Origin: Fibrobacteria bacterium | Lineage (GTDB): Bacteria; Fibrobacterota; Fibrobacteria; UBA11236 | Assembly: GCA_041746255.1 (NCBI GenBank) | Contig: JBGTHM010000080.1 | Coordinates: 1-26,996, forward strand | Direction of reading: 5' to 3' | DNA: 26,996 nt | Translations under genes and position numbers: made by a program | The notes under the pieces: model-generated | Databases searched by the model: none | Told to the model about the DNA's origin: nothing | What the model saw: only the letters and a program-made list of their open reading frames with translations | Part shown: piece by piece, positions 496 through 20,637 of the stretch | Layout: each line of letters begins with the position of its first letter | Numbering within the stretch: the stretch's first letter is position 1

Positions 496-657
496 CTATA
501 TAGGCTCGGAAGGGTGTCGACTTCGATTGGGTTTATTGGGTTCAATTTTACCAAAGCAGGTAAAATTTAATACTTTGGGCGGAATTTAGGGTCTAAATAG
601 GATGAATTGAGCGATTTTTCCACCTGAACTGAGCGCAAATGTCAAGTTTTCAGCCGT

Positions 658-1518
658 TCAGAATTCCTTATCGGATTGAATGATTTTCGGGATTCCACCA
701 GGATACGGTATTTCCGAAGGGACTTTTTCCGGTTTGGGATCTACGGTTGCTTTCAGACCTTCGGCAATCCGGTATAAACGTTCCTGCCACACGAAGAGGT
801 CGAATTCGGCTATAACCAGGCTGGGCTGGAAACCGATTTTGCCTAGTTCGTTTTCGGCTTTGCCGATTCCGTATCCCATTCGCATCATCACATCGACGCG
901 TAGTAATTGGAAGGCAGGATCCATTTCGGACCGGATATTTTGCATGATACGTACGTAATAATCCGGATCGCGGGCCAACGCGTAGAGAACACGTGAGTCA
1001 TGGTAGAGCCGCCTGAGAGACAAAATCTCCGGTTTTGATGGCGCTTGGGAAGTAACGGGAGGCAGCCATTGGTCGCGCCATATTTGATCGGCTGTGCGCT
1101 GGGGACCAAAATTGGCGCGGGCGGTATCCCATGCCGTTTGGACTTCCATCGGAAGGGAATACTCCCACATTTCTACGAAGGGGGCGTAGCGGGCGACCAT
1201 GTAAAAATGATTTTTAGCTTCCGCCGAGTCGCCTCGAAGCACCAGGCTGAGTATACCGAGCATTTTACTGGCCTGAATTTGGCAGGGCATGCTGATACTG
1301 GATTTTATTTCTCGCGCAATGAAGAGATAATTTTTCCAAGTATTATAGACTTCTTCAAGGTCGCCCTCAAGAAATTTATGCCGAAGGCCCACGGTATCCG
1401 GGCAGGGCATGGAATAATTTGCTCCATGTCTTTTTACCCCTGTATCCGCTGTTACGGAATGATCGGATATGATTACGAGGAATAGGAGGCACAATATCGG
1501 GAAAAGAACCCGCAGCAT
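658..1518 (-). CDS. Hypothetical exported, mainly alpha-helical protein
   Basis: ATG at 1518 opens a signal-peptide-like segment (MLRVLFPILCLLFLVIISDHSVTA) 5 nt after the upstream stop at 1524. The longer ORF-track start at 1662 overlaps the previous gene. Last gene of the three-gene operon. Confidence 0.7.
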   Translation of the reverse strand: MLRVLFPILCLLFLVIISDHSVTADTGVKRHGANYSMPCPDTVGLRHKFLEGDLEEVYNTWKNYLFIAREIKSSISMPCQIQASKMLGILSLVLRGDSAEAKNHFYMVARYAPFVEMWEYSLPMEVQTAWDTARANFGPQRTADQIWRDQWLPPVTSQAPSKPEILSLRRLYHDSRVLYALARDPDYYVRIMQNIRSEMDPAFQLLRVDVMMRMGYGIGKAENELGKIGFQPSLVIAEFDLFVWQERLYRIAEGLKATVDPKPEKVPSEIPYPGGIPKIIQSDKEF

Positions 1519-1523
1519 CACGA

Positions 1524-2318
1524 TTATCGGGGTGTGGGTTCGCTGGGCAGTAAGGGATCGGTTGGGTATAAATTCGGGGCAGAAGGTGATGGAGCATCGC
1601 TTTGAGACCATAACCATATGCCGGCTCCGGCAATTATGGTACCGGCTCCCAGGGTTCCCCAAAGCAGGGTTCTTCCCATTCTGGAATTCGCGGGTTTCAC
1701 ATCCGCTTTTTCCGGAAAATTTTGGGGTCTACCGCTGGTCTCGATTTTTTGCCTTTCGGAAAAATCGAGACTCTCAATGGTGGATCCCGCAAAATCCAAT
1801 CCAATCGGTTCCTTCCAAGGAGGTATCAAGTACAAACTGCCTTTGAAGTAAACCTGGGAAACGGTTACGTCGTAAGAATCGGAATAAACGGCTGTGTTGG
1901 CATTGAAAATCCGAGTATGACTCATCTTCAATTTTCCTGTGGGTCGAACCACTATGCCTCCCCATGCGGATGAACTGGGTCGAAACCCGAATGATCCCTC
2001 CTCAATGGATCCCGAAAAATAGACGGGTTCGTGTTCATTTCCCAGTGTAATTAACGTTCCTTCTACGATAATCACATTATTAGCGGTGGAATTGGGTCCG
2101 AAATGCAGCATAGTCCCGGAATGAAGGGTGGTCGTCGTGTTTTCGGCCACGACCATAGTGTCGCAGGGCGCATGGTAAGGCGTTTTGAGGTTGGAAAAGG
2201 GTTTGCCGAACATAGCAGGCAATTGCCTTAACGGTAGGCTATCACTCAGACAAGCTGCTCCGTAAGACAGGTTGGGCAGTGTTGAAAAGGCCAGGCAGCA
2301 GGCCAGGATGGTCCTCAT
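1524..2318 (-). CDS. Exported protein with a short beta-helix-like segment and C-terminal membrane anchor
   Basis: ATG at 2318 overlaps the upstream TGA (ATGA coupling). Signal peptide MRTILACCLAFSTLPNLSYGA. The motif IIVEGTLITLGNEHEPVYFSG...WGGIVV is typical of the start of parallel beta-helix domains. C-terminal TM (LLWGTLGAGTIIAGAGIWLW) followed by a Pro-rich tail. Confidence 0.75.
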   Translation of the reverse strand: MRTILACCLAFSTLPNLSYGAACLSDSLPLRQLPAMFGKPFSNLKTPYHAPCDTMVVAENTTTTLHSGTMLHFGPNSTANNVIIVEGTLITLGNEHEPVYFSGSIEEGSFGFRPSSSAWGGIVVRPTGKLKMSHTRIFNANTAVYSDSYDVTVSQVYFKGSLYLIPPWKEPIGLDFAGSTIESLDFSERQKIETSGRPQNFPEKADVKPANSRMGRTLLWGTLGAGTIIAGAGIWLWSQSDAPSPSAPNLYPTDPLLPSEPTPR

Positions 2319-5300
2319 GGCAATTCCTTCAGGTGCAGCATGGGTCTTTGCAGAACCTTGGTTCCGCTTGCGGTGCGGCCCGTCAGACGGGAAATATACC
2401 GCCCCGAAGTCCAATTCCCGGTTTCGAGCATGTGGGAATGCTTTCCGGGCCCCAGATTTTTCCACTGGTGTTGGTAAACGATTTTTCCGGTCATGTCGAG
2501 AATGTCCAGGGTAATCGCGTGATAGGGCCCCTCGGCATGGGGTATGGAAAAGGATATCCGGGTTTGGCGGGAGAATGGATTCGGGGCGTTGGGAGCCAGC
2601 ATGAAGGAGAATGCATGATCGGCCAACAAGGTTTTTTGCAATTGCTGAAAGGACCCGGAGGGCACGCTCAGGATGCGGAAGGTATGCGCCCCCTGGGCCA
2701 AGGGAATTAAGATTTCATTTTCGAGCGGTGTTAAGCTGGCTCCAGCCGGATCCCATAATGCGGCTGTGAGGCCTTTTTGCTTTCCGGATACGGGCTGGGC
2801 TTGAATTTTAACTTCGCCGGTGCGGGGCACATGCACAGTGAAAGAGTTGTCCAGCGAAGCTATGTCCTCTACGGATAACGTCGTTGCTGCCCGACCGGAG
2901 TTCCAGGCGGCGCGAAAGCCCTCGCGGAAAAAAGGGATGGCTGGTGAGGGTCTATGTGAGCGTCCTTCATGGATAGTAAGCTGGGAGCGTCCTCCGGTGG
3001 AAAAAGTAAGGCTCATGGTAAATCCGTTGAAACCGGCAGTTTGTTTCGGCGCGACCTTTTTTGCGAGTGCGGCGGCGATGGGGTTGAAAACCAATGAAGT
3101 TGGCGCTTCGGCATGCACGGCATACCCGGTAAACGGTTGCAAGGTATCGGCCTGCGACCATACGGGCTGAGCCGATGTTCCGGAACCCTCCCATATAAGG
3201 CCCTGGAAATAGGAAACCAGCGCGGGATCCAATTGGATATCGGCGTCGGAAAAGGGTATAGGGGTGGGATTGGAAATAATATTCCAGCCTTTTTCCAAAG
3301 CGAGAGTATCGGCGCCGACCATCCACTGATAGGTGGTTGCGAGACTTGCCTTCAGCTCGGCGGGGATGGCCAGTAAATAACCTTTTCCTTTGGTGAGATT
3401 GGCATTATTCGGTAGCGCCTTCCACTCACCCTGCCATTCCTTGGCGTTGGACTGGGCGGCTTGTTCCTTCGTGAGGGCGGCCAAAACCCCTCCGCCCAAT
3501 TCGACGGTATGTGGAAAGCCGACCAGGGATTTGACGCGCTCAGGATATTTCGGAGCAACGGCATTGACGGCGTCTCGAAACGCTCCGACGCTTACAGGTA
3601 CCGGAACTGCGGTCGTATCCCAGCTGATGACGTCGGAATAGGATTGGTAACCGAGGCGATACAGGACCAAGCCTTCGGGCAGATCAAGTGTATAAGCCGA
3701 GTCGCCGGGGATTCCGGATGGAGTTCGCACCTCCACTTGGCCGTTGGGAAGAATAACGGTGATTTCCGGAAAATAGGCCTTGAGTCGCGATTTCTCTTCC
3801 TGGGATAAGACCGGCGTCAAAGTCAGGCGGTTGTTTGCAACCTGGATCTCAGCCTGGGATTGGGGATAAACCGGAAGGGTATCGGTAGCCAACAAGGTTT
3901 CCACGGCCAAAACGGCTTGGTCTTGCGCCTGCATGTCGATACGATAGGTTTTACCGGCAAAGGTGAGGTTTTGCTTGACCCATGTTCCATTGCGTTGGAC
4001 ATAGGCTTTGACGAGTTCGGAGCGGTTGGGCGCCAAGCCGGATAGGACTAGAGTATACGGGTCTTGCAATTTCAAGTTATCCTGGCTGATATCCCTTTTG
4101 GCCAGTAACCTGAGGGTATCCGTTTTGAAGTCGACGGGAGTAAAGAGGGAATCGAGCAGCAAGTTCCCCGGCTGCGAAGAGAGAAGACCCAAGGCGGAAT
4201 CCGCTCCGATGGCGATATCGGTTTTTATGCCGGAAGGGACAAGGAATTTTCGCGCCAACGCCAACACTTTTCCGGAATCGGTGGGGGAGAGGGCTACGGT
4301 GACGGTGGATGAATCTTCATGGAGGGCTATTAGGGGTATGGCGGTTTTCGCGTCGATGAAAAAGGCTGCCTGGCGGGGGTGGGTTTTCTTAAGCCGAACC
4401 TGCAAGGAGTCCGCTTCAGCTCTTCCGGGCCAGCGCGAAGTAAATGGCTGTGAGAGCGCGCCCAAATGGGGGTGTTCCGCCAGGTCGATTTGTAGGGTGG
4501 AGTCGATTTGCAATTGGTGCCCAGCTACGCTTTTCGAAAGCACGGCGTGGCCTTGGGGTAGGTGAAGGGTATCGTATCCGCTACCTAAGGCCAGGCGTTC
4601 CATCAGCAAGGCTTGCAGGGTTTGGGCGAAGGGGAAGGTTCCCCACCATTGATCAACGGAGTCTTTGACCGCTAGGGTTGGGTTTTCTTCCAGCCGCCAA
4701 GCCAGGGAATCGGCAAGCCACGGTTGGGTCGCGTCACTTTGGGCCAAACCGATACGGATGGATTCGGAACCTTCGGCATTGGTGGTTAGCGCTACGCCCA
4801 AAGGGTTTTGGTTGCGACTTATCTGGCGAATGCGTTTCATGCCTTGCTCGGATTCGGGAGGCGAGAGGGTGGTTATACCTGCGCGCGTGATTTGGTCGAA
4901 TTGCACTGAGGTTTCTGAGGGAAGACCGGATGGCGTGATGTTGCTGCCCCTGGGGGTGTTCTGCCCCGCGAAGGCGGGAATAAAGATGCGAGCGGCGGCG
5001 GATGCATTGGTAAACACCAGGCTTCCAAGCGGACCGGGTGTTTGAGGGGTGAAGGTGTTTTCCGTTTGTGAGAACAGCAGGGGCGCGCCTTGCGGATCGG
5101 CTTCGGGGAAGGTGACGCTGTTGATGGCGACAGGGCCGCTGATTTGCAATGCGGTGTCTTGGAGCCAGAAGGTGCGCGTGGAATCGAGTGCGGAGGGATA
5201 GGCTCGAATTGCATACGTAGCTTGCAGGGAACGGGGGATAAGCGCGGAAGGGAAGCGAAGGACGAGGCTGTCTTTTGGCGCGAGGCGCTTGGCCAACAGG

Positions 5301-6352
5301 GTATCGCCGGGAAAGACATTGTAGGCGGGAAAAGCGCCGTCGGGGTTGGTGTAACCTCGAAGGTCGTCATCGGCGGGGCGGAAATCCCAGAGGGTTAGGG
5401 AGTCGCCGAAGGGGGCCATTTCTACATTTGAAGGATGCAGAAAAGACTCCGAAGCCGGATAATTATACCCGGCCCAGGTATTGAATCGGACATTTCCTAA
5501 TCGCGAACCCCCTCCGTCATAGTCGCTGAAAGTCATGGTAAATTTTTGAGCCCCCCCGGGTAGCCGATTATCAACGGGGGGATGGGCGAAAATATTATTG
5601 ACGAATATTCGAACTCCGGTAAAATTCCCATTCAACTGAAATTGCATTCGATTTACGGTGTTCTGATGCATCTCGATTTTTCCAGCGGTTTTACCGGCAA
5701 ACAAACCCGGGAAATTAAAATGGTTATTGACTAGAACGACGTCCTTAGCCGTGAAATCGATTTTAGCCGCAGCCCCACCTTGGTTGGCGACGATATAGCT
5801 CCGTCGAATTTCGATGCGGGAATCGGTATCGCCGCTATTCCAGGATAAAAACACGGAGTTGAATCGGTCCCCGAATATTTGGCAAGAGTCGATGAGGAGA
5901 TTGCGGTTGGGGCTGCCAGTAGCTGTTTCTATAAACTGGGCAGCTTCATTCACGGCCCGAAAGGCCAATCCCCGGAACACCACGGGGGCATTGATATTTT
6001 CCAGCTTGAATAATTTTCCGGTATATTCCACCACCTGTGCGTTCGGTTCAAATCTTTCGAAAATCAAACTATCGGCGTTGAGCCCGGCCAGATTGAAGGC
6101 GCCGACATCCGCATAGGTTTTGAAGCGCACCACATGGATGCCTCCGGGAGCGGCGCTGGCTATTTGGGTGGCGATTTGAGTAAGGCGGCCGGGCCCGTCA
6201 ACGAGATAAGTAGCAGCGAAGCCGGATCGAGGAAGGAATAGCGCAATTGTGAAAAAGAGGCCCAACAACCCTCGCCCGGCCTGGGAAAGGTTTGTTTTGG
6301 GTTTACTGCAAAATAGGCCAGCCACGTCCATGGGTCCAGGAAAATTAACCAA
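2315..6352 (-). CDS. Large secreted protein with T9SS/Por-type (FlgD-Ig-like) C-terminal sorting domain
   Basis: 1345-aa ORF with signal peptide (LLGLFFTIALFLPRSGFAA), N-terminal beta-helix-like repeats and an LEKGWNIISNP motif. The C-terminus FMLAPNAPNPFSRQTRISFSIP...LDILDMTGKIV...SGRYISRL matches the secretion-system CTD consensus. Start uncertain (TTG 6352 or ATG 6331). Confidence 0.85.
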   Translation of the reverse strand: MVNFPGPMDVAGLFCSKPKTNLSQAGRGLLGLFFTIALFLPRSGFAATYLVDGPGRLTQIATQIASAAPGGIHVVRFKTYADVGAFNLAGLNADSLIFERFEPNAQVVEYTGKLFKLENINAPVVFRGLAFRAVNEAAQFIETATGSPNRNLLIDSCQIFGDRFNSVFLSWNSGDTDSRIEIRRSYIVANQGGAAAKIDFTAKDVVLVNNHFNFPGLFAGKTAGKIEMHQNTVNRMQFQLNGNFTGVRIFVNNIFAHPPVDNRLPGGAQKFTMTFSDYDGGGSRLGNVRFNTWAGYNYPASESFLHPSNVEMAPFGDSLTLWDFRPADDDLRGYTNPDGAFPAYNVFPGDTLLAKRLAPKDSLVLRFPSALIPRSLQATYAIRAYPSALDSTRTFWLQDTALQISGPVAINSVTFPEADPQGAPLLFSQTENTFTPQTPGPLGSLVFTNASAAARIFIPAFAGQNTPRGSNITPSGLPSETSVQFDQITRAGITTLSPPESEQGMKRIRQISRNQNPLGVALTTNAEGSESIRIGLAQSDATQPWLADSLAWRLEENPTLAVKDSVDQWWGTFPFAQTLQALLMERLALGSGYDTLHLPQGHAVLSKSVAGHQLQIDSTLQIDLAEHPHLGALSQPFTSRWPGRAEADSLQVRLKKTHPRQAAFFIDAKTAIPLIALHEDSSTVTVALSPTDSGKVLALARKFLVPSGIKTDIAIGADSALGLLSSQPGNLLLDSLFTPVDFKTDTLRLLAKRDISQDNLKLQDPYTLVLSGLAPNRSELVKAYVQRNGTWVKQNLTFAGKTYRIDMQAQDQAVLAVETLLATDTLPVYPQSQAEIQVANNRLTLTPVLSQEEKSRLKAYFPEITVILPNGQVEVRTPSGIPGDSAYTLDLPEGLVLYRLGYQSYSDVISWDTTAVPVPVSVGAFRDAVNAVAPKYPERVKSLVGFPHTVELGGGVLAALTKEQAAQSNAKEWQGEWKALPNNANLTKGKGYLLAIPAELKASLATTYQWMVGADTLALEKGWNIISNPTPIPFSDADIQLDPALVSYFQGLIWEGSGTSAQPVWSQADTLQPFTGYAVHAEAPTSLVFNPIAAALAKKVAPKQTAGFNGFTMSLTFSTGGRSQLTIHEGRSHRPSPAIPFFREGFRAAWNSGRAATTLSVEDIASLDNSFTVHVPRTGEVKIQAQPVSGKQKGLTAALWDPAGASLTPLENEILIPLAQGAHTFRILSVPSGSFQQLQKTLLADHAFSFMLAPNAPNPFSRQTRISFSIPHAEGPYHAITLDILDMTGKIVYQHQWKNLGPGKHSHMLETGNWTSGRYISRLTGRTASGTKVLQRPMLHLKELP

Positions 6353-6486
6353 AATGGGTGTTTATGGCTCGATTATTAAGGGGGAAATGCCATTTTCTTG
6401 ACCCTACTCCTCAAAATGCCTGTGCCCGGGCTTGGGGTATCCAGGATGGGGTGAATGCGTTCACAAATCCTCGGAATTTTTCCCTG

Positions 6487-6512
6487 CGAACTTAGCATTA
6501 ATGATAAGTTCG
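6487..6512. repeat. 26-bp imperfect palindrome, copy 1 (CGAACTTAGCATTAATGATAAGTTCG)
   Basis: 12-bp arms with one mismatch around a central TA. 25/26 identical to the reverse complement of 9959-9984. Confidence 0.9.
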
Positions 6513-6744
6513 GTGATCGGAATTCCGGACTGAAATTGGGAACAAACCAGGATGGTCTCTGGACCCGACGCATACCTCCCGTTCGGATTTATTTTGAAAG
6601 GCTTTTACCCCCGCTACCCCGTATAACCTTTTATTTTACCCTTTTCTATAAATTTGTGTTACAAATAATTCGTCTCTGAATAAAAGCAGAAGCATACAAA
6701 AGTAAATCCGATATGCTATTTTTAAGCACACGGAAAATTTGAAG

Positions 6745-7191
6745 ATGTTTACTTTCGATAAACTTTGGGAAACGCACCCTGCCAGAAAAGGTGATATATA
6801 TCCTTGTTCTGAACCATCCGGTGATCCGCATTTTGCAAACCAATGTGCTATTCGGATGGCCGTTTGTCTTTCGGCATCTGGAGTGGATTTTACAAAAGAA
6901 AAATTAGCCCATTGCTGGCAACACGCAACGAAGGATGCCCATGTTTTACGCGCTCAAGAACTTGCGATTTGGATGGCAGCTACTCCGGCTATTTTCGGAA
7001 CAGTCGAAAAGAAAAAATCCGTGACTTCATCGGACTATAAGGACAGAAAAGGATTGGTTTTTTTCATGAATTTCTGGGGTCCGGGTAATCAGGGCGATCA
7101 CATTGATCTTTGGAATAATTCAGCAATGACACGAGGCGATCCCGAATATTTTTCACTCTCGTATGAGGTCTGGTTCTGGGATATTGTTTAA
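6745..7191 (+). CDS. tae4: Type VI secretion amidase effector, Tae4 family (NlpC/P60-like peptidoglycan amidase)
   Basis: Catalytic motifs NQCAIRM (Cys) and GDHIDLWN (His), C-terminal EVWFW and ~150-aa size all fit Tae4. No signal peptide. Alternative TTG start at 6739. Confidence 0.85.
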   Translation: MFTFDKLWETHPARKGDIYPCSEPSGDPHFANQCAIRMAVCLSASGVDFTKEKLAHCWQHATKDAHVLRAQELAIWMAATPAIFGTVEKKKSVTSSDYKDRKGLVFFMNFWGPGNQGDHIDLWNNSAMTRGDPEYFSLSYEVWFWDIV

Positions 7192-7812
7192 GCTATCGCT
7201 GGAATAAAAAATTCCATTCGGGCCAATTTTTCTCCAAATACCCTCAATTTTTATCTCTACCCACTTATCCCGGTTTGGCCTTATTTCATTGGCTAAATAC
7301 TCCGGGGAAACAACAACTTTTCCAGTTTGATTTATGAAACCCCAGTAGCCGCCATGGACTTCCATCGCAAATTTTTCTTCTACCATTTTGCAGCCCGTGC
7401 AAAAGGCGGCTAGTGGCGCGTAAAAGGGTAGTGTATAGTCGAATACGGGGTCGATAACCACAAGTCCCGTGCTATCATGAAACCCTACTTTTCCATTTCG
7501 GATAAATCGTGCCATCCCTCGATAATAATAGTCCGGGCCATTATCATATACAAGGGAATGAAATAACTTCCGTCCTTTTGAATCGATATAATACCATTGA
7601 TTCGAGGAGTCCAATACTGTGGCAATGCAGTGTTTTGTAAATGGGTTTGCGACCCAATATTGGGGTTCTATCGTAGGTTGGTTTTTGGTTTTATATCCCC
7701 ACATACCGTTTGAATCTTGGTAAGGATTCATCTCTGGACAAATTTTATGTGCGCATCCCCACAAAAAAGCGATTGAAAATAGAAATAGCAGGTAATTGAA
7801 GATTCTAATCAT
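7153..7812 (-). CDS. WG-repeat (KWG-type) lipoprotein, candidate immunity protein
   Basis: Lipobox FLWG-C after a hydrophobic stretch. Repeats NGMWGYK, WYYIDSKG, NGKVGFHDSTG, YWGFINQTG. Lies directly downstream of the Hcp fusion on the same strand. Confidence 0.85.
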   Translation of the reverse strand: MIRIFNYLLFLFSIAFLWGCAHKICPEMNPYQDSNGMWGYKTKNQPTIEPQYWVANPFTKHCIATVLDSSNQWYYIDSKGRKLFHSLVYDNGPDYYYRGMARFIRNGKVGFHDSTGLVVIDPVFDYTLPFYAPLAAFCTGCKMVEEKFAMEVHGGYWGFINQTGKVVVSPEYLANEIRPNRDKWVEIKIEGIWRKIGPNGIFYSSDSLNNIPEPDLIRE

Positions 7813-7859
7813 AGGGACATCATTTCGGTGCAATTCAAACAGTTGGTTTTTTAGAAAGA

Positions 7860-9815
7860 CTAAATTCTTTCAGAGACGATATTGAGTTTATGCTTTTTCC
7901 CCTTAATCTTCGGGATACTCACCTTTAATTTGGATCCATCCAATATTACAGCTGTAAAATAATTTAAAGGATTAATTTTGATACTGATGCACCCATCGGC
8001 ATCTGAGATAGACCGTTCTTTCTCTGTACCATTTTCAAATATTTGTATTTGGCAATTTGGGATGGGAGTGTTAAAAGGCGTGCAATAACGAATCGTAATT
8101 TCTTTGAGAGCATCAAGATTAATTTGTCGGTCCGATTCCACCACCAATCCATCATAAAATGCGCACCCAAATCCCTCGGTCCGCCGCTCTCCCGCCTTCT
8201 TCACCTGCCCCTGGCACGGACCGGTATTCCCGCGCTTGCAGGGGTACTCCACCGGAAAGGTCTGGCTCGATTTCACCAACAATACCGTTACCCGCCGATT
8301 CGCCTCGCTCCTATCTTCCGTCACCTCTACCCGGTTGAACTCGCTGCAACCCATATGCGGCTGCCCGTCCACCTTGTCAAAATATTTCGCCTTCAAGCCC
8401 AGATCCTTGACTTCCGGCACTGCGTCGATAAACCCCGTAAACAACGCCTCACGCGTCTTCGGCCCCGCAATTCCATCGGCCTTAAGACCCTGCGACTCCT
8501 GAAACCCCTTCACCGCCCATTGCGTCTTCGGACCATCCAACCCGTCTATCGCACCTGGATCATGGTCCGCATGTTTCAGAAGCGACTGCGTCGCCGCCAG
8601 GCTCCAATTTTCCTCTTTATGCAATTCCTCCCACACGCTCGGATCGCCCATCAAAAACGCATATACCGAACGGGCTCGCCGTTCCGACAGCCCCTTGTTG
8701 TAAGCCTCCTTGCCCACCGCATCCGTATGCCCGAACAAGGCCATCTTACCGTCGGGATAACTCTTCCTCCATGCCCCGATTTTCTCGCACAACTCTTTCA
8801 ACTTCGGAATCTGGTCCGGATGCAGGAAACTCGAATCGAATCCGAAAGTCACGCCCACCACCACATGCGTGTCAATAAGCGGATCCGCCATCTTATCCAC
8901 CGACTTCACGCCTTCGGGCTTGGCCCCCGAATCCAGCGGCTCCGACAACGTATGTTTGGCCGTGAAAAAATATTCCACTTCTTTGGGCGCTTCACCATCC
9001 CCGCGATAGCGAGGCTTGAATACCGGCATCTTACAAGTCGCGCGACCATTTTCGGTGAACCCGTCGGCCTTGGCGATTTGCTCCGGGCCCTTCGGGGTCT
9101 TGGCGAAAAGCACGAACTGTACTCGCTTGAGGCTTTTATGCTCCTCCGGCAATTGGCATTCCACCGATAGCGTGGCCTCTTCGTTGAAACCCACTTCCGT
9201 CGAACCCCACACGGGATTTTGCAGCAAAACCTCAACCACCTTTTCTTCTGGTTGTGGCGCGGGTTCCGCGTCGCCGTAATCGGTTTCCTCTTTGGCTTCT
9301 TCTTTGCCCGTATCCTTCAGGCTATCCCAGAAAAGGATGTAACCTTCGTCATGCAGCCAGGTCACCTTGTCATAGACCATCGCCACACGCGCCTGCAGCA
9401 ATTTCCCGCCGTCGCCGCCAAGCCTACCCAGCCGCGCCCCGCGCATCAGCGTGCGCACTTGCGTCAGACGTACGTTCTCAAGCGTATAGAGAAACACCCG
9501 TTTTTCCTTCGGTTCCTCCTCGACGCTGCCTTCCACCAAATCCCACAGCGAAATTTCCACCAGGGGTAATGTGCCGCTATGGCACAGGCATTCCATCAAT
9601 GAGGGGTAGGCTTTGTCCAGGGGCAAGGAGGCGTAAAAAGGTTCGTGGAAGCGGAGGTGACGGGTGCCGGTAAAACCGTTGCTTCGCTGTCGCAAAATGC
9701 GCACGGAGTGCGCGCCTTCCAGCAGCGGATAGCAGTTCTCACGACCGGGCAGGTCGATGGGACCGGGTAGGAATCCATTGATTCCGGCAAGGCGGATGTA
9801 GGTTTTGAGCGGCAC
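7860..9815 (-). CDS. Hcp (TssD)-like domain fused to an OmpA-like domain with an inserted peptidoglycan-binding domain
   Basis: Residues 1-~165 follow the Hcp pattern (RFHEPF...LDKAYPSLMECL...VEISLW...YTLENVRLTQV...VAMVYDKVTWLH). OmpA_C motifs FGFDSS, GHTDAVG...YNKGLSERRA and NRRV. PG_binding_1 motif DPGAIDGLDGPKTQWAVKGFQESQGLKADGIAGPKTREAL. GTG start. Confidence 0.85.
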   Translation of the reverse strand: MPLKTYIRLAGINGFLPGPIDLPGRENCYPLLEGAHSVRILRQRSNGFTGTRHLRFHEPFYASLPLDKAYPSLMECLCHSGTLPLVEISLWDLVEGSVEEEPKEKRVFLYTLENVRLTQVRTLMRGARLGRLGGDGGKLLQARVAMVYDKVTWLHDEGYILFWDSLKDTGKEEAKEETDYGDAEPAPQPEEKVVEVLLQNPVWGSTEVGFNEEATLSVECQLPEEHKSLKRVQFVLFAKTPKGPEQIAKADGFTENGRATCKMPVFKPRYRGDGEAPKEVEYFFTAKHTLSEPLDSGAKPEGVKSVDKMADPLIDTHVVVGVTFGFDSSFLHPDQIPKLKELCEKIGAWRKSYPDGKMALFGHTDAVGKEAYNKGLSERRARSVYAFLMGDPSVWEELHKEENWSLAATQSLLKHADHDPGAIDGLDGPKTQWAVKGFQESQGLKADGIAGPKTREALFTGFIDAVPEVKDLGLKAKYFDKVDGQPHMGCSEFNRVEVTEDRSEANRRVTVLLVKSSQTFPVEYPCKRGNTGPCQGQVKKAGERRTEGFGCAFYDGLVVESDRQINLDALKEITIRYCTPFNTPIPNCQIQIFENGTEKERSISDADGCISIKINPLNYFTAVILDGSKLKVSIPKIKGKKHKLNIVSERI

Positions 9816-9958
9816 GGTTTATTCGCAGTATTGTGTTAGGGCAAAAAGATACTTTCAGGGTTTCGGCTTGGGTGACTTCGGTGATGGTGGTCACATGCAA
9901 GGGGTGGCGATACCCCCCATGAAAATCTGAAAAGGGGGAATATCCAAAATTTTCCGCT

Positions 9959-9984
9959 CGAACTTATCATTTATGCTAAGTTCG
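9959..9984. repeat. 26-bp imperfect palindrome, copy 2 (CGAACTTATCATTTATGCTAAGTTCG)
   Basis: Inverted counterpart of 6487-6512. Similarity extends a few bases outward (AATTTTTCCCTG vs AATTTACCCGG). Confidence 0.9.
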
Positions 9985-10277
9985 CCGGGTAAATTGGGTC
10001 GCACCGAATTTTATCCCAGGGCCCAGGTCACATGATGACCACCGTCAACAATTTTTCAGTTTGGCCACAAATACTTTTTCCAGGTACGCCCATTGCAGAC
10101 TTTTATCCCGAATCCGCTCAGTACCTGCTAATTGAAATGAAGCCCGAGGCCATATGGCCGTGAAACCATTCCAGCCCTATGACAGTAAGATATCAACTTT
10201 GGAACCAGTTTGAGGGAGAGGGAAATCATTCAGGCCTTCCGGAGAGATTTCACCTTCACGTCTCACTGGTGGCTGCC

Positions 10278-10496
10278 TTACCCCCCCGATTTCAATTCCC
10301 ACCCCGTCAGAATATCCAGCCCCTCTTCAACCTCCAGTAGCACATGTGCCAGGGCCGAAGCGTTACCCAGACCTGCTGTCCGGCTTTTATCGTATTCGCT
10401 GGTTAAAAGCTTTTCCAGCACCTCCAATTGTGAGCGGGTGAAGCCGATTTCCACGCTCGGATCCTCTTCCATACTGAATTGACGCAATGATGCCAC
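10278..10496 (-). CDS. Small hypothetical helical protein
   Basis: 72-aa ORF with a GTG start preceded by an AAAGGGAG ribosome-binding site. Amphipathic helical composition. Divergent from the kinase operon. Confidence 0.55.
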   Translation of the reverse strand: MASLRQFSMEEDPSVEIGFTRSQLEVLEKLLTSEYDKSRTAGLGNASALAHVLLEVEEGLDILTGWELKSGG

Positions 10497-10592
10497 TACC
10501 GACTCCCTTTCGCGTAGACGCGATTAAAACGCCCCCCGGATGGGTGGCTGTTGAGAAGGAATCTAATCTGATTAGTGGGGCGCGAGCAGGTA

Positions 10593-10633
10593 TGTAAGAA
10601 AAATGTATGAAAGCCTGTAATGAAAATGTATGA
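10593..10633. promoter_or_regulatory. Phased direct repeats, putative regulator binding sites
   Basis: TGTAAG (10593), TGTATG (10604), TGTAAT (10616) and TGTATG (10627) at 11-12-bp spacing. AAAATGTATGA is exact at 10600 and 10623. Lies between divergent genes. Confidence 0.5.
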
Positions 10634-10713
10634 TGACCGCCGTCACATTGCGCGTATCTTTTCCGTCATAGAATTAAGACTCGGTTCCTCGGATGGGAAC
10701 ATAGGAGATATGG

Positions 10714-11064
10714 ATGGCTATGACAAGGGAAGGCAAGGCGGAAAATTTTTTGAAAAACCTGGTCGAAAACCAAATGAATGATTTCAGGGAATTACGTGAC
10801 TTTGCGCCGAATCCAATCGTCAAAGGGTATTACGAACTCAAATTGCAAACCTTGGAATCCGCCATGCAGCGAATCAAATGCGACGTTTCCAATACTCGCA
10901 TTATCGAAACCTTTCAGGAATGCATTCAAGAATACCGCGATGAAATCAACCTCGGAATGAGCCGAAAAATCCTGGAACATTATGAAGACCGCATCGAAAC
11001 TTTACAATCGATACTCGACCGTTTTATCGGATTTTTAATGCAAACCGCCGAGGATGAAGAGTAA
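10714..11064 (+). CDS. Hypothetical helical protein with an internal duplication
   Basis: AGGAGA RBS. The stop overlaps the kinase start (TAATG). The two halves resemble each other (YYELKLQTLESAMQRI / HYEDRIETLQSILDRF). Confidence 0.75.
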   Translation: MAMTREGKAENFLKNLVENQMNDFRELRDFAPNPIVKGYYELKLQTLESAMQRIKCDVSNTRIIETFQECIQEYRDEINLGMSRKILEHYEDRIETLQSILDRFIGFLMQTAEDEE

Positions 11065-13772: not shown

Positions 13773-14306
13773 ATGAAAATGGCTCACATTCGCAACCGAA
13801 TTTTATCCACGCTCGTGGCATCTTTGATTTGCCTTTGCTTTTCCATGGGGTGCACAGAGAACCAGCAGGAAAAAGGCGCGGCGAGCCATTTGGAGCAAGT
13901 GGAGCAATCCGAAGCGTCATCGGAAGTGGAGCTGGCGGTTAAAGCTTCTGCCAAAACCGTGGCCGACCAGGATACCGTGAAGGAAATTACTTTTGAATTC
14001 GAGGATTTGGGCCGTGAGAGGGGTGCAAGTCAAGTGCGGGCGGATGGAGATACCGTGTTCTTCGAAATCTATTACGCAAAAAGCAATTGTCGGGAATATG
14101 AGTATACTTTCAGGAAGGTTGGGGATTCTTTGATAGTTCTTCATCAAGACCTTGGTATAAGGATGAAGCACACGAGGGCTCATGCAATCAAAGGCGAGAT
14201 TCACGGCCTAAGAAGTGGAAATTACCTGTTCTTCTTAAAGGACATCTATGGAAAATACAATAAGGCACCTCGAGTTCTCTTCCAAGACAGCCTGGTTGTG
14301 AAATAA
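13773..14306 (+). CDS. Putative lipoprotein, paralog 1
   Basis: Lipoprotein signal (…CFSMG-C), low-complexity linker and beta-rich C-terminal domain. About 63% identical to paralog 2 by hand alignment. Confidence 0.85.
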   Translation: MKMAHIRNRILSTLVASLICLCFSMGCTENQQEKGAASHLEQVEQSEASSEVELAVKASAKTVADQDTVKEITFEFEDLGRERGASQVRADGDTVFFEIYYAKSNCREYEYTFRKVGDSLIVLHQDLGIRMKHTRAHAIKGEIHGLRSGNYLFFLKDIYGKYNKAPRVLFQDSLVVK

Positions 14307-14610: not shown

Positions 14611-15165
14611 ATGAAAATGGCTCACATTCGCAACCGACTTTTATCCACGCTCGTGGCATCTTTGGTCTGGCTTTTCCTTTCCATAGGTTGTACGCCGAAC
14701 CAGGAAGAAAAAGGTAGCGGGAGTCTCCCGGAAGATATTGAGCAGATTGAAGCTTCATCGGAATTGGAACCGGAAGTTAAAGTCCCTGCAAAAAGCACGA
14801 TCGAACAGGATAGTTTGGAGGAAATTACTTTTGAATTTCAGGATATGCGCCCGGAGGTGACCCAAAAGGGTTGGAAAAAGAGGCCCGATCAGTTGGTTGT
14901 CAGCGGGGATACAGTGTTCTTTGAAATCTACTACGGAAAAATGGCTTGCCGGGAATATGAGTACACTTTCAGAAAGGCCGGCGATACCCTAATAGTTCTT
15001 CATCAAGACCTGGATATGTGTAAGAAAACCATTGGTTCGTATGGAATCAAAGGCGAGATTCAGGGCCTAAAAAGTGGAAATTACTTTTTCTTCATAAATC
15101 GAATCCATGCAAGATACCATACGGCGCCGCGAGTTCTCTTCCAAGACAGCCTAGTTGTGAAATAA
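14611..15165 (+). CDS. Putative lipoprotein, paralog 2
   Basis: Lipoprotein signal (…FLSIG-C). Shares GDTVFFEIYY, CREYEYTFRK, LIVLHQDL and APRVLFQDSLVVK with paralog 1. Confidence 0.85.
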   Translation: MKMAHIRNRLLSTLVASLVWLFLSIGCTPNQEEKGSGSLPEDIEQIEASSELEPEVKVPAKSTIEQDSLEEITFEFQDMRPEVTQKGWKKRPDQLVVSGDTVFFEIYYGKMACREYEYTFRKAGDTLIVLHQDLDMCKKTIGSYGIKGEIQGLKSGNYFFFINRIHARYHTAPRVLFQDSLVVK

Positions 15166-15398: not shown

Positions 15399-18300
15399 AT
15401 GCTTATGTCACGGTACTTGGCATCACTGGCGTTTTTCTGTTTTTTGCATCCGGTATATGCTGCAGATCTGCCCGCTTGCATCGATGGAATGGTTCTGCAT
15501 TCACAGGGGGAAATTATCCTGGGCGACCGGGGTAAAATACTCTCCGGTGGGGTGGGAGCCCATGGCGATATCCACATTGGAACCGGCCTCAAGGGCCACT
15601 CCAATTTCAAGGCCGGAGGGGATATTCTCGTCGCAAACAAGGTTAAAATTTTCGGCAATGCCCTTGCTGGCGGCAAAGTGGTGCTTTCGGACGGAGCGAA
15701 GGTTTTTGGAGCCATTGTAGAAGGCGAAGCATTACCTCCATGCGCCATATTCGTGGAACCCTTCACCGCTGGGAGTCAAAGCGTTCTGGTGAAATCGGGA
15801 AATTCCTTGGAACTACAGCCGGGGGACTATTCCGATTTATCCGTTCGCGGCCAGGGGCATTTACGGCTTACCTCGGGAATCTATCGCTTCAATGCCTTTT
15901 CGACGGAAGCGGGTGGGCACATACATTTGGATGCTGCAGCGGGTCCCATCCGGATCCTGGTGAAGTCAATGGAACTGGGTAGTCGAACCCGCATGCATAC
16001 CTCGGAGGACACTCTCCTGCATTCCATCGAGTTCCATTCATTGCAGGCATCCCCCATAGCGTTAGGGGCCGGCACCCATTTCCGAGGCGCCTTGGTCGCT
16101 CCCTTGGCCGAAATCAAGGTTGGGGTCGGAAGTATTCTGCGGGGCGCTTTTTGGGGAGGGCGGCTTGTCCTGGAGCCTGAGGTGAAGGTCTTTCATATTC
16201 ATGTTGGAGAAGGTCGGCAGGTGGTGGAAATCATCAGTCCCCCGGATGGATATATCACCCGGGAATATTCGGTGGGCGTAGAATGGATTGTCGATGGAGT
16301 TTCCCAAGCCACTCTGACTACCGAAGAGCTTCAGGTTGAAGGGGCTAATGAAATCATCCGCTGTGCGGGAACGGAATGTGCTCAAATTTCCGTTATTCGC
16401 GACACTCAGGCCCCGGTGGTGGTGATTACGAATCCGGGAGCGGATACCACGGTTGCTGAATCTCCTATCACCGTGGCTTATACTGTGGACGGAACTCTGC
16501 AGGATACCATCTGGGCACTGTCGGCGGGGGAAAACCTCTTGGTGGTGGAGGCTTTCGATGCGGCGGGAAACCGGGGTGTGGATTCCCTAAGGGTCAGGCT
16601 AGAGGCATTGGAGATGCTGACGGCGGTGGCCTCCGGGCCGGAAGGGGTTTTGTCATACACTTATTTTTCCTTGGATGCGCGGCAAAGCAGCTCTCCCCAG
16701 GGTACTCCCCTTCAATATCGTTGGAAACAGATAAGGGGAGAGCCGTTGGTGCTTTTCCATCCGGATCGATCGACTACGACGGGGCTGAGTCGCGGCCCGG
16801 ATATTCCGGCATTTGAATTGGAGGTACGGGATGCACTAGGCATGCTGGTCCCGGCCTTGGATACGGTGGCGATAACCGTGCGGGAAGCGGCCCACCCGGA
16901 AGAATTCCTGCAAGCCTTGCAAGCGGCGCAAAAAGTGCAGGATGGACCTTATCTCATGAGCCTTACCTCCGTGGGAGGGGAAGGAGCCTATTTTACGGCG
17001 GAGGATACACTATCCTTCAGCGGCACGGTATCGCGTGAAGACGGTCCTTTCGGCGTCATCCAATGGTTCTCCGCCTCGGCCTCCGGCGTGTTCAACCCAC
17101 AGGAGCTGGACTGGTCCGGATTGCTGGTGCCTTTATACGAGGGAGACAATCCGCTTACCTTCGTGTACTCCAAGGGGGGAAGGGTGGCGGTGGAAAGGGT
17201 GCTGGTAACCCACTCTACTGAATTGGAATTCGGAGAATTCCATCTCAGTCCGGATGTTCTGGAGGTGGGACGGCCGACGGATTTCCGGGTGCGGATCCCC
17301 ATCCAGGGCTCAGGTATCAACCGGGTAATTCTGGTGCGGTGGGGCGACTTCGAGCAGGAACTGGGTGATCTCCGGGACGATGGCGTGGGAGCGGATTCGC
17401 TGGCCGATGACGGCATATACTCGCTTGAGTTTTCGCTTACCCCCGTATCCGGCGAGGATTATTCCCTTCGCATCAAGGTGGTAGGGGATGGGGGCACGGA
17501 TTATTCCCGTATCCACTTCTTTTCGGCGCAGGAGCCGTTCTCAGACGCGGTTTATAATGAAATTCTCCAAGTCAATTCCCAAGCATCCTTCCTTTATGAT
17601 TCCCTTACGGCGGCTATAGGACGGGAGGCGGCCATGAATTTCGTGGCGGATTGGCTTATTGAACAACCCAATGTGATTGTCGCCGGAATCGGACCCGGAG
17701 GTCGGGCGATTTGTTGGCAATATGCGAGCGGAGTGCATGCCTTCATCAGCGATGCGCCGGAGGGTACGAAGGGAGGAACCAGGAAAATAAAAGTGAAGGG
17801 GCTTTCGCCATTTTTGTGGGAATTCAATGAGGTAGACAATTTTGGAGTGGTTCATGAGTTTGATGATGGCAGTGTCAGCTACAAGCCTATTCTTGGTGTT
17901 TTGAATCCCGTTGCTTATAGCGTTGATTCCTTGTTGGAAAATCGCACCTTTAGTGAAAAAAATGTTTCCATTGAAGATTGGAAGAATTGGGGCGGCTATA
18001 AAACAATAATGGTTTCCACTCATGGAAACACTTTCGGATACCAATCTCTCTCTCAAATCAGATACAAACCAACCCATGATCCCGAAAAAAATGGATCTTC
18101 TTATTGGGCCAAGCCCTACCTTTCCTTGGCAACCGGAATTGTCCTTGATCCCTTGAATAGGCCGCGCTATTGGAGCGAATTGAACTCCGGAGGTCCCTAT
18201 CCCCGCATGGTTGTTGAAGCTAGCTCCAATACTATCTGGCTCACGCCTACATTTTTCACCAAGTACAACAAGAACCTGGATGGCAGCCTTCTCTATATTT

Positions 18301-19667
18301 CCGCCTGCCGCGGCTTATATAATAATGGTCTTTGGGATGCGCTCCGCGCCAATGGCGATGATAAGATGGCGATGGTGGGCTACACGGAATACGTACTATC
18401 CGATTTTGCGAGTCAGGCTGGGAAGGTTCTCTATAAGGAGTTGACGCAAGGAACCGAATTAAAGGAGGCCATAGACTCTATCAGAGCATTCTGTTCCGGG
18501 AGCGGAGCACAATATTGTGGGGTGAGAGTAGGACGGGCCCATGACTTTTCGGATCCCGTTTCTCCGGCATTTCTGGAATGGCGCGGCAACAAGGACTACC
18601 ATCTGGTCTCCACCGACATTTATACCTGGGGAGGCAATAGGTGGGGACAACTTGGAAATGGAGAAAGGGATTTATCCAAAAATTCCGAAAACTGGACCCC
18701 GAACCGAATAATGAAAAAGGGCGGACTTAAAGTCGCAGCGGGAATTTCTAATGCACTTCTGCTTGCTGCGGATAGTTCAATCTGGTCCTGGGGCGCCAAT
18801 CATTCTGGGCAACTGGGTTTTGGTGATACCGCGACAAGAACTGTCCCGACCCAAATCCCAGGATTGGACAATGTGATAGACATATTTTCCGGCAGTGATG
18901 CCCACCACAACCTGGCATTGCTTGCGGATAGCACTTTGCGCGCATGGGGGTTTAACCGGTACGGGCAGCTTGGCGTAGGTCATATTAATGAATTCATACC
19001 GGTTCCCACGGCGGTTCACGGTTCCCGAAAATTCATACAGGTTGCGCCGGCTTTCTCCCACACCCTCGCTATAAGCGCCGACAGCACTTTATGGGCGTGG
19101 GGAACCGAGGAAAATGGTTCATTCGGAGACGGAATTGAAAGGAGTGTCACGCCGATACCTATGTCCGTGTCGTCAATGGGAAAAGTCGTACAGGTTGCAA
19201 TCGGGATTCCTTACGCACAATATGTTCTCAAAGCAGACAGTACATTATGGGCTTGGGGTACCAATTACGCCGGCAAGGTGGGCAATGGCAATTCAGATGT
19301 GCAATTTACACCCGTAGAGGTTTTGAAAAATGTAACGGAGATATCCTATCGTGATTTTCCCGTAGCCATTCGGGATGACAGTACAGTATGGACATGGGGA
19401 GATGGAGAATATTTAGGCGATGGTGTATGGACGCGTATGACACCGACCAAGGTTCCGGAAATCACGGGAGCTGTAGCCACTTCCTCAGGAAACCAATATC
19501 AGTTGATAGTAACTGCCAAGGGCGAGGTCTGGAGCTTCGGTAATAATAATGAAGGTATGCTGGGAGACGGGACTGAGGAGAGTCGTTCAAGGCCGGTCAA
19601 AGTCAAGAAGGTGACAACCGCGACATCCGTGGCGGCGGGATTCGATTCCGGGGTCGCACTGGAGTAA
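15399..19667 (+). CDS. Large secreted multidomain protein: beta-solenoid, Ig/PKD domains, DDG-motif domain, caspase/gingipain-fold-like domain, C-terminal RCC1 repeats
   Basis: Signal peptide. Solenoid end GALVAPLAEIKVG…GAFWG. Ig-like RDTQAPVVVITNP and AFDAAGNRG. PKD-like LDARQSSSPQGTPLQYRWKQ. LRDDGVGADSLADDGIYS. IMVSTHG…LLYISAC. About seven WG-N-xGQLG RCC1 repeats from ~18620. Confidence 0.88.
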   Translation: MLMSRYLASLAFFCFLHPVYAADLPACIDGMVLHSQGEIILGDRGKILSGGVGAHGDIHIGTGLKGHSNFKAGGDILVANKVKIFGNALAGGKVVLSDGAKVFGAIVEGEALPPCAIFVEPFTAGSQSVLVKSGNSLELQPGDYSDLSVRGQGHLRLTSGIYRFNAFSTEAGGHIHLDAAAGPIRILVKSMELGSRTRMHTSEDTLLHSIEFHSLQASPIALGAGTHFRGALVAPLAEIKVGVGSILRGAFWGGRLVLEPEVKVFHIHVGEGRQVVEIISPPDGYITREYSVGVEWIVDGVSQATLTTEELQVEGANEIIRCAGTECAQISVIRDTQAPVVVITNPGADTTVAESPITVAYTVDGTLQDTIWALSAGENLLVVEAFDAAGNRGVDSLRVRLEALEMLTAVASGPEGVLSYTYFSLDARQSSSPQGTPLQYRWKQIRGEPLVLFHPDRSTTTGLSRGPDIPAFELEVRDALGMLVPALDTVAITVREAAHPEEFLQALQAAQKVQDGPYLMSLTSVGGEGAYFTAEDTLSFSGTVSREDGPFGVIQWFSASASGVFNPQELDWSGLLVPLYEGDNPLTFVYSKGGRVAVERVLVTHSTELEFGEFHLSPDVLEVGRPTDFRVRIPIQGSGINRVILVRWGDFEQELGDLRDDGVGADSLADDGIYSLEFSLTPVSGEDYSLRIKVVGDGGTDYSRIHFFSAQEPFSDAVYNEILQVNSQASFLYDSLTAAIGREAAMNFVADWLIEQPNVIVAGIGPGGRAICWQYASGVHAFISDAPEGTKGGTRKIKVKGLSPFLWEFNEVDNFGVVHEFDDGSVSYKPILGVLNPVAYSVDSLLENRTFSEKNVSIEDWKNWGGYKTIMVSTHGNTFGYQSLSQIRYKPTHDPEKNGSSYWAKPYLSLATGIVLDPLNRPRYWSELNSGGPYPRMVVEASSNTIWLTPTFFTKYNKNLDGSLLYISACRGLYNNGLWDALRANGDDKMAMVGYTEYVLSDFASQAGKVLYKELTQGTELKEAIDSIRAFCSGSGAQYCGVRVGRAHDFSDPVSPAFLEWRGNKDYHLVSTDIYTWGGNRWGQLGNGERDLSKNSENWTPNRIMKKGGLKVAAGISNALLLAADSSIWSWGANHSGQLGFGDTATRTVPTQIPGLDNVIDIFSGSDAHHNLALLADSTLRAWGFNRYGQLGVGHINEFIPVPTAVHGSRKFIQVAPAFSHTLAISADSTLWAWGTEENGSFGDGIERSVTPIPMSVSSMGKVVQVAIGIPYAQYVLKADSTLWAWGTNYAGKVGNGNSDVQFTPVEVLKNVTEISYRDFPVAIRDDSTVWTWGDGEYLGDGVWTRMTPTKVPEITGAVATSSGNQYQLIVTAKGEVWSFGNNNEGMLGDGTEESRSRPVKVKKVTTATSVAAGFDSGVALE

Positions 19668-20367: not shown

Positions 20368-20637
20368 ATGAAACAGATGATATCGATACGGGAGTTTCGC
20401 GGTGAGCTTTCGGGCGTTCTGGACGGAAAAAAACCAATCCTTCTCACCAGCCATGGCCACGCCAAAGCCATGATATACCCGTTGGAGGCGGGTGCTGAGG
20501 TGCCGATGGATGTGAAGCGCGATGCGTTCCAGATATTGGCTCAGCAGATCTCCAAGAAAACCGCCGATATTGACGAAAAAGAAATGTTGAGGGACTTTGA
20601 AGCCTGGCGTAAGCAGCGTCGTCGTAGCAGACGCTAA
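20368..20637 (+). CDS. Phd/YefM-like antitoxin
   Basis: N-terminus ISIREFRGELSGVLDGKKPILLTSHGHAKAMIYPL fits the Phd fold. GGAGG RBS. Overlaps the PIN gene. Confidence 0.8.
   Translation: MKQMISIREFRGELSGVLDGKKPILLTSHGHAKAMIYPLEAGAEVPMDVKRDAFQILAQQISKKTADIDEKEMLRDFEAWRKQRRRSRR

Follow-up and report, generated by a model that had tools for sequence, protein, structure and literature searches.

The 26,996-nt stretch of DNA analysed here (the window; contig JBGTHM010000080.1) belongs to a Fibrobacteria metagenome-assembled genome of 4.59 Mb in 130 contigs, and contains two closely similar 26-bp palindromes, CGAACTTAGCATTAATGATAAGTTCG at 6487-6512 and CGAACTTATCATTTATGCTAAGTTCG at 9959-9984, which bracket genes related to a type VI secretion system (T6SS). 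An original prediction had described the two sites as an inverted pair, acting either as a shared operator or as the ends of a mobile or invertible cassette. The palindromes are members of a dispersed 16-copy element family, and the interpretation that we favour, with somewhat better than even confidence, is that they represent copies of an operator belonging to an orphan AbiEi-family regulator, which is predicted to bind them, and that they also mark the borders of accessory modules. The window features that bear on the element are listed below; other contigs of the genome carry C numbers, with positions after a colon.

613..663, + strand: degenerate third element copy, with core 626-649 (GAACTGAGCGCAAATGTCAAGTTT) and flank GATTTTTCC
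658-1662, - strand: 334-aa gene
2315..6352, - strand: 1345-aa gene with a weak type IX secretion system C-terminal sorting signal in a domain scan
6474..6525, + strand: element copy, core 6488-6511 (24 bp) inside a conserved block reaching from about -13 to +14 (26-mer 6487-6512)
6739-7191, + strand: tae4, Tae4-family amidase effector of 150 aa (PF14113, 8.1e-20)
7153-7833, - strand: WG_beta_rep gene of 226 aa, same strand as the Hcp toxin and immediately downstream of it
7860-9815, - strand: Hcp+OmpA+PG_binding_1 fusion by Pfam domains, a polymorphic toxin of 651 aa
9946..9997, + strand: element copy, core 9960-9983 (26-mer 9959-9984)

The three window copies bound two segments, the first of which, between the copies at 626 and 6488, is filled by the 334-aa and 1345-aa genes. 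The second, between the 26-mers, encloses tae4, the WG_beta_rep gene and the Hcp fusion, as the original prediction had proposed and as gene calls and Pfam matches confirm, and the WG_beta_rep protein is the likely immunity partner of the Hcp toxin. GC content in this second segment is 43% in tae4, 41% in the WG gene and 36% in the toxin C-terminus, against 57% in the conserved Hcp part. Upstream distances of the left copy are 136 bp to the leftward 1345-aa gene and about 228 bp to tae4, while the right copy lies 145 bp upstream of the Hcp-fusion start, with its TTTTCCGCTC flank on the Hcp side; the predicted range of 140-230 bp upstream of the two inward-pointing units agrees with these distances. 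The reported identity of the 26-mers as reverse complements was likewise recovered (25/26, against 23/26 in direct alignment), these being the only sites in the window at up to three mismatches (0.00 expected from 100 shuffles), and the weak outward extension noted earlier corresponds, in a repeat search, to an inverted match of 35 nt at 91%. The third copy sits 8 nt past the stop of the 334-aa gene. A search of window positions 5800-10800 against Rfam at E<=1 returned no matches.

The two sites are not a private pair. In its own genome, a degenerate pattern of the motif finds 15 sites against 0 for the reversed control, a looser scan adds the degenerate copy at window 626-649, and an nhmmer model of the aligned copies recovers exactly 16 copies, the next match having an E-value of 1.6. 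The element is an imperfect palindrome of about 51 bp, AAnTTTTCCGCTC + GAACTTAnCATwwATGnTAAGTTC + GGCGnnTnGATTnG, within which each window 26-mer is by itself a near-perfect palindrome of the form CGAACTTAnCATwwATGnTAAGTTCG. The flanks are asymmetric and common to the aligned copies, forming a conserved block from about -13 to +14 around the 24-bp core; left and right flanks are weakly complementary, so that the whole element is an extended imperfect palindrome, and sequence past about 51-75 bp is not common to the copies. Oriented by flank, the 2-bp centre is TT in nine copies, TA in three, AA in two and AT in one. The core is near-invariant except for positions 9 and 18, which vary freely and mostly do not pair, and its outermost G1/C24 are both swapped to C/G in two copies (C8 and C96). 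This pattern of conservation suggests constraint by a symmetric binding partner and not neutral decay.

The family is intergenic and lineage-specific. All copies but one (15/16) lie outside any open reading frame (ORF) of at least 80 aa, the remaining copy being overlapped solely by an unsupported 83-aa frame. At up to two mismatches the motif is found in none of 40 relatives, the same-genus genome G001 included, and the three matches in a one-genome-per-species scan and three in a metagenome scan include no case (0/6) with the family flanks. Twelve of the 16 copies stand upstream of at least one gene, four are in convergent and four in divergent gaps. The copy at 613..663 is a weak family member, with an nhmmer E-value of 4.3e-07 under the full model and 8.5 versus 4.1 bits in a leave-out test. 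Folded as single-stranded DNA, the element gives a z of about -3, which is no more than an effect of the palindrome. An intrinsic terminator was rejected, as the hairpin has no 3' U-run on either strand, and no convincing sigma-70 or Bacteroidota-type promoter box could be assigned by eye inside the element.

Since the flanks are asymmetric, each copy can be given a direction. In a model built from ten unambiguous copies, the window copies excluded, the 9960 copy scores 63.5 bits forward versus 25.1 reversed and the 6488 copy 49.3 versus 31.2; both face the same way, and the pair is therefore best described as direct repeats of a palindromic element. The inverted orientation of the original prediction is not a real property of the pair, because each site is palindromic and the three positions that favour the inverted alignment (9, 14 and 18 of the 26-mer) vary freely across the family; over 54 nt, the two copies match at 34 positions directly and at 36 inverted. 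This bears on the proposal that the sites are the inverted-repeat ends of an invertible tae4-WG-Hcp cassette, which now appears highly improbable. The 25/26 reverse-complement match and its extension to 35 nt are what such a cassette would offer, but a palindromic core matches itself in both senses, the family flanks give both copies one orientation, and the same element occurs 14 further times elsewhere. Contigs from the source metagenome span 4372-7899 and 9798-10154, covering both window copies, and contain neither a 6488-to-9960 joint nor any excision or inversion joint between copies, a weak negative in that this is an assembly of one hot-spring metagenome, from which the genome probably comes, and contigs hide rare variants.

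The identification of the element as the multiplied operator of an orphan AbiEi-type regulator is well supported, and starts from a copy on C116 that abuts the following gene.

C116:6196-6855: AbiEi-family regulator gene, winged-helix antitoxin-type, 219 aa, with element copy C116:6861 at its start

This copy reads ...CCGCTC, GAACTTATCATAAATGCTAAGTTC, AGCGA, ATGGATTGG..., where the ATG opens the 219-aa gene (M-D-W) and the palindrome spans -29..-6 from the ATG, ending 5 nt before it. The right flank of the family, GCGAATGGATTGG, coincides with the 5' end of the regulator gene, the copy on C41 being identical at 14/14 positions. In G001, the ortholog of the regulator (71% amino acid identity, MDWQIF...) carries GTTAGCATAAATGCTAAC, with a palindrome at -26..-9; this is the inner 16-18 bp of the element, with a 16-bp core common to both genomes at the same 9-nt spacing from the ATG, and the palindrome is hence ancestral at the abiEi locus. 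Several lines of evidence identify the protein. PADLOC assigns residues 1-191 to AbiEi (E 6.4e-33), with Pfam AbiEi_4 reaching an E-value of 0.012 at best and a sequence profile search against PDB giving no matches, and an AF2 model built from 32 sequences (pLDDT 88.5) has as its best Foldseek matches in PDB the two solved AbiEi antitoxins, 6Y8Q (AbiEi) and 1ZEL (Rv2827c), with probability 1.00 each and TM 0.48-0.55. Several homologs are annotated as 'predicted transcriptional regulator of viral defense system'. Furthermore, seven of ten AbiEi homolog loci from this genome and its relatives have a palindrome that ends within 10 nt of the start codon or overlaps it, including perfect palindromes of 36 and 38 bp; of the other three, one has a palindrome further upstream and two have none by the scorer, one of these two showing, by eye, an imperfect version of the palindrome of a relative.

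The AbiEi of Streptococcus agalactiae is described as a winged helix-turn-helix autorepressor whose own promoter holds two 23-bp inverted repeats, separated by 3 bp, that are bound by two monomers; Rv2827c of Mycobacterium tuberculosis is described as binding four such inverted repeats (PMC7319586). The element is closest to these AbiEi operators, with which it has in common a winged-helix two-domain AbiEi-family protein and a long AT-rich inverted repeat over the promoter or start region of the regulator itself; its span of about 51 bp compares with the 23+3+23 = 49 bp given for S. agalactiae (PMC7319586). It is set apart by its copy number, the operator being present 16 times in the genome, and by the lack of an adjacent AbiEii toxin partner, and binding is here a prediction. 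By analogy with the characterised AbiEi, two AbiEi-like monomers would bind the two halves, of about 25 bp each, of the element. Four AbiEii genes occur elsewhere in the genome (C19:16759, C125:11105, C116:21249 and C28:41464), two of them adjoining other AbiEi paralogs; the C116 regulator is an orphan and not part of a complete AbiE pair, unlike the systems characterised so far. By contrast with its multiplied operator, the canonical AbiEi/AbiEii pair on C116 has a palindrome that is single-copy at up to six mismatches, indicating that spreading is peculiar to the operator of the orphan gene. Two element copies stand on C116, 567 bp apart, around a run of 17-mer repeats. These tandem repeats of about 17 nt (L024 ~7000-7400) are CACTGGTTGAGGACTCG-like and are read by the ORF caller as a 94-aa ORF.

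Among T6SS genes, the genome has a sheath gene on C62, a single Hcp of canonical form (C26) and Hcp-OmpA-PG_binding fusions numbering exactly four (window, C89, C123 and C125), and all four fusion genes have an element 120-145 bp upstream with its TTTTCC flank toward the gene. The fusions have about 560 N-terminal residues in common at 83-93% identity and then diverge completely, at total lengths of 635-1110 aa, a common N-terminus with diverging C-termini that amounts to a polymorphic-toxin layout; no Pfam match was found in their C-terminal parts, and the last ~90 aa of the window fusion are unique. At the DNA level, the homology among these upstream regions begins within the gene, reaches 6-44 nt past the palindrome and stops there. 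If the regulator binds the copies, neighbouring promoters would come under one repressor, those of all four Hcp-toxin operons included, and in the window the same repressor would cover the divergent pair formed by tae4 and the 1345-aa gene. The shared operator of the original prediction survives in part, as an AbiEi-type operator-like palindrome present at four of four Hcp fusions; it is not specific to T6SS genes, as the other copies adjoin purL, panB/gluQRS, glk, pabB, an Nramp transporter, a PilZ-FeeM gene, an Rhs region and uncharacterised genes, and some fall in convergent gaps. In Mesorhizobium huakuii, an abiEi mutant is reported to show down-regulation of 12 T6SS genes by RNA-seq (PMC8436566), an effect that may be indirect; a literature search on AbiEi in connection with T6SS, an orphan antitoxin or a regulon gave this paper alone. 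The placing of Hcp, OmpA-like and PG_binding_1 domains ahead of a variable C-terminus, as in the four fusions, is an unusual polymorphic-toxin architecture. Three homologs of the Hcp fusion occur in G001 (L030, L031 and L032), all reaching contig ends at or near the gene start, and the palindrome is absent from the one that has upstream sequence.

Several observations weigh against the operator interpretation. The adjacent AbiEii (DUF1814) toxin gene is absent, the downstream neighbour of the regulator being a convergent epimerase, and tblastn detected no abiEi coding relic beside any other copy; decayed duplicates of the whole abiEi gene were rejected on the same search, which found none beside the other 14 copies. 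The family's right flank also forms the outer arm of the palindrome, and its likeness to the 5' end of the gene is therefore weaker proof of descent than first appears. The Hcp copies are paralogous duplicates, so that the four count as one event followed by gene duplication; the element lies 120-145 bp upstream at these genes, unlike the source copy, which abuts the ATG, and at that distance it probably lies past the core promoter. The orientations of genes around the copies resemble what random intergenic placement would give, with no enrichment in promoter regions. Lastly, with regard to module borders, the copy on C125 falls within a genome-specific insertion of 9.2 kb and not at its border, and a junction between C89 and C123 across a high-copy repeat, on which one of the loci described below depends, is plausible but unproven.

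Ten of the 16 copies form direct-repeat arrays around low-GC accessory modules, whose cargo genes mostly point left in element orientation. At two loci compared with G001, copies stand at, or within about 75 nt of, the borders of genome-specific DNA. The first is glk|pabB, where G001 has glk, a spacer of about 95 bp and pabB. In this genome, glk adjoins copy C123:14214 and pabB adjoins copy C89:30715, and the G001-type spacer is split: the left junction reads ...CAACTCGC|AATTTTTCCGCTC+palindrome, and the right junction, on C89, reads palindrome+GGAGG|GCCGAC..., the spacer resuming 5 nt after the palindrome. The edges of the unit here are -13 and +5, with no visible target duplication. The cargo of the locus consists of two Hcp-toxin operons, a HipA-like/DUF3037 pair, an MmeI-type restriction-modification enzyme and a helicase with a T5orf172 protein, no integrase being seen in it; a third copy, C123:9274, lies inside this DNA, all three copies have the same direction, and GC content goes from about 0.55 outside to 0.45-0.49 inside. 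C89 and C123 terminate in opposite ends of the high-copy repeat. At the second locus, between a 122-aa gene and the PilZ-FeeM gene, the flanks of C73:3738 and C41:1982 lie on one G001 contig, 4.7 kb apart. The cargo in G001 is a 65-70% homolog of the 1345-aa gene of the window, whereas in this genome it comprises GSDH paralogs, a collagen-like gene and a 265-aa gene; each of the two copies is about 75 nt inside the conserved flank, and the starts of contigs C73 and C41 have an exact 20-mer in common. The position of copies as direct repeats at the edges of low-GC modules points to a probable role as short portable homology or boundary sites, which the copies would combine with their predicted operator function, in the gain, loss and swap of toxin/immunity and defence modules. 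Other copies are solitary and occupy spacers that are enlarged relative to G001 without cargo: the panB-gluQRS spacer measures about 231 bp versus about 15 bp, and the spacer upstream of purL, where another short repeat lies alongside, 846 bp versus 157 bp. The original prediction had opposed its own reading to a motif dispersed beside unrelated genes with neither enrichment at T6SS loci nor empty sites; the motif is indeed dispersed beside unrelated genes, but it is also enriched at Hcp-toxin genes and empty sites exist.

The 12+2+12 = 26-bp layout of the element resembles that of serine-recombinase crossover sites, and the same border evidence can be used to argue that the element serves as a crossover site for site-specific recombination, in a system of the integron, pdif/Xer or serine resolvase type that captures and shuffles accessory cassettes. 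The AbiEi locus would then be a mere insertion target or accessory factor, and the enzyme would be unassembled or unrecognised. Besides the layout, this explanation draws on an asymmetric 2-bp core that correlates with flank orientation (TT in nine copies, AA in two), on the direct-repeat arrays of ten copies around modules, on the precise junctions at glk|pabB, and on the different loci occupied in this genome and in G001, which imply ongoing turnover in both lineages. One source-metagenome contig is also relevant. It skips from 9825 to 9947 (121 bp), which leaves 10 nt between the Hcp start and the element at its -13 edge. The contig may represent a strain or paralog variant; the exact coincidence of the joint with the -13 edge hints at a discrete unit. 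We nonetheless regard recombination as unlikely. The best match to a serine recombinase (PF00239) reaches 21.1 bits, below the cutoff of 23.3, and lies on C12, away from all copies, and the five tyrosine recombinases (PF00589; on C79, C18, C102:46521, C56:27219 and C23) are all more than 20 kb from copies or on other contigs, the nearest 21 kb from a copy; a recombinase gene could be missing from an assembly of 130 contigs. Furthermore, the empty site in G001 has no palindrome, and hence no attB-like core, the cores of the two window copies differ (TA and TT), which would block exchange with a 2-bp overlap, and the contigs, weak as they are on this point, lack excision or inversion joints between copies. 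The earlier proposal of mobile-cassette ends without a recombinase of their own stays a candidate, with border copies at two loci and neither a serine recombinase nor a nearby tyrosine recombinase.

In pdif/Xer modules of Acinetobacter plasmids, short palindrome-like sites are described as bracketing accessory modules without an internal recombinase (PMC6449649). Those sites measure 28 bp (11+6+11), resemble chromosomal dif and bracket modules as inverted repeats, in contrast to the 12+2+12 core, conserved outer flanks, direct orientation and chromosomal location found here, in a motif absent from 40 of 40 relatives. The resemblance of one arm to the XerD arm of dif, noticed in the original prediction, leads nowhere for the same reasons of layout and distribution. 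The rAID arrays of Bacteroidales are described as T6SS-related gene arrays split by conserved intergenic motifs (PMC12247911), and have as their defining features a tyrosine recombinase alongside and short orphan immunity genes in a common orientation; the present arrays have no recombinase next to them, and their cargo includes full Hcp-toxin operons, restriction-modification and other defence genes. The element lacks the tested defining features of pdif, rAID, REP/RAYT and serine-invertase sites, and a literature search on palindromic repeats flanking T6SS effector cassettes found nothing equivalent.

The solitary copies in enlarged spacers (panB-gluQRS and purL) raise a further alternative, namely a miniature repeat, selfish or neutral in nature and akin to repetitive extragenic palindromes (REPs) or miniature inverted-repeat transposable elements (MITEs), with no regulatory role at T6SS genes. 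Such a repeat would have been seeded from, or have landed in, the abiEi promoter, and would be tolerated in intergenic DNA only. The apparently random placement relative to genes, the restriction to one lineage (0/40 relatives) and the mobile-element debris near two copies, an IS256-like relic on C102 and a reverse transcriptase fragment on C8, all fit this picture, and REP/REPIN elements are likewise short (20-60 nt), imperfect palindromes that are intergenic and lineage-specific. REPs are described, on the other hand, as occurring in hundreds of copies, tied to a RAYT gene and avoiding recently acquired DNA (PMC3390384), the opposite of what is seen here, where only 16 copies are concentrated mostly at or inside acquired DNA and no Y1/RAYT transposase (PF01797) was detected, genome completeness being 100% on marker genes. 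Moreover, terminal inverted repeats or target duplications could not be defined, no sequence past about 51-75 bp is common to the copies, the near-invariant core with its two free positions points to selection for a binding partner, and the inner palindrome is ancestral at the abiEi locus. We regard the miniature-repeat explanation as improbable.

The debris itself consists of two remnants. On C102, a degraded transposase N-terminus with an in-frame stop (L023 ~6330-6720), presumably IS256-like as judged from its N-terminal motif, lies about 115 bp from the C102 copy; an association of the element with an insertion sequence was rejected, the relic having no second copy in the genome. On C8 (L016, 8414-8887), the copy C8:41047 stands just upstream of a 107-aa ORF and of a fragment, at the contig end, that resembles a group II intron reverse transcriptase (NCBIfam 2e-08, far below cutoff). 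On C96 (L022), beside an Rhs gene, the 3' end of a 457-aa gene (5585-5852) is repeated as an orphan fragment 1 kb downstream (6893-7160; 268 nt, 86% identity), and the element sits between the two. A template/variable repeat pair of a diversity-generating retroelement was rejected at this locus, the differences being ordinary substitutions and not adenine-specific.

To return to the operator interpretation, the sister genome G001 bears on how the sites may have multiplied. G001 has six copies of its own variant, TTAGCATwwATGCTAA, at up to one mismatch (control 0), with extended arms and a ATGAATTG flank like those of its own master copy, and these stand at loci other than those of the copies in this genome. 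A 3.5-kb module with DUF433 and Xre-type genes, followed by another AbiEi-like ORF, has one of these copies on either side, and others lie in housekeeping spacers. With a distinct variant at different loci in the sister species, operator spreading appears to be active in both lineages. In the lineage studied here, the operator would have been copied from C116 to 15 further intergenic sites. Beside the purL copy, a stretch of about 160 bp on C56 (L018 5659-5819) has at least four matches in G001 at 72-85%, and is another short dispersed repeat that the genus has in common.

The known role of AbiEi antitoxins is to repress the toxin-antitoxin operon that encodes them, and here an orphan member appears to own 16 operators. 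If the protein binds the copies, a regulator of the toxin-antitoxin type would serve as a common switch, and possibly as a border marker, for horizontally acquired weapons; this would link abortive-infection regulators to the control of T6SS effectors, and would make the element a simple tag by which accessory modules of this lineage could be found in sequence. A more ambitious proposal, which we offer as speculative and rather improbable, is a hitherto undescribed cassette platform, made up of the AbiEi-like protein with its multiplied operator, that marks, silences and helps recombine acquired modules. Its sites of about 51 bp would be spreading actively in both species, in a manner resembling integrons or dif modules and built on a toxin-less toxin-antitoxin regulator in place of a known recombinase, and its cargo would comprise T6SS Hcp toxins and their immunity genes together with restriction-modification, HipA-like and helicase defence genes.

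Other features of the window stand apart from the element. Its first ~140 bp (1-141) are one end of the high-copy repeat mentioned above, with GTGACCGG sub-repeats; one end of this repeat is found on 18 contig ends and the other end on 18, with no internal copies. Most probably an insertion sequence or transposon that failed to assemble accounts for it and breaks up the assembly. Two neighbouring uncharacterised genes (13773-14306 and 14611-15165) are paralogs at 61% identity and are followed by a gene for a 1422-aa RCC1-repeat protein (15399-19667). At its right end, the window carries a RES-domain toxin paired with an Xre/MbcA/ParS-type antitoxin (25910-26776); it also has a solitary PIN_2 gene (20597-21013).

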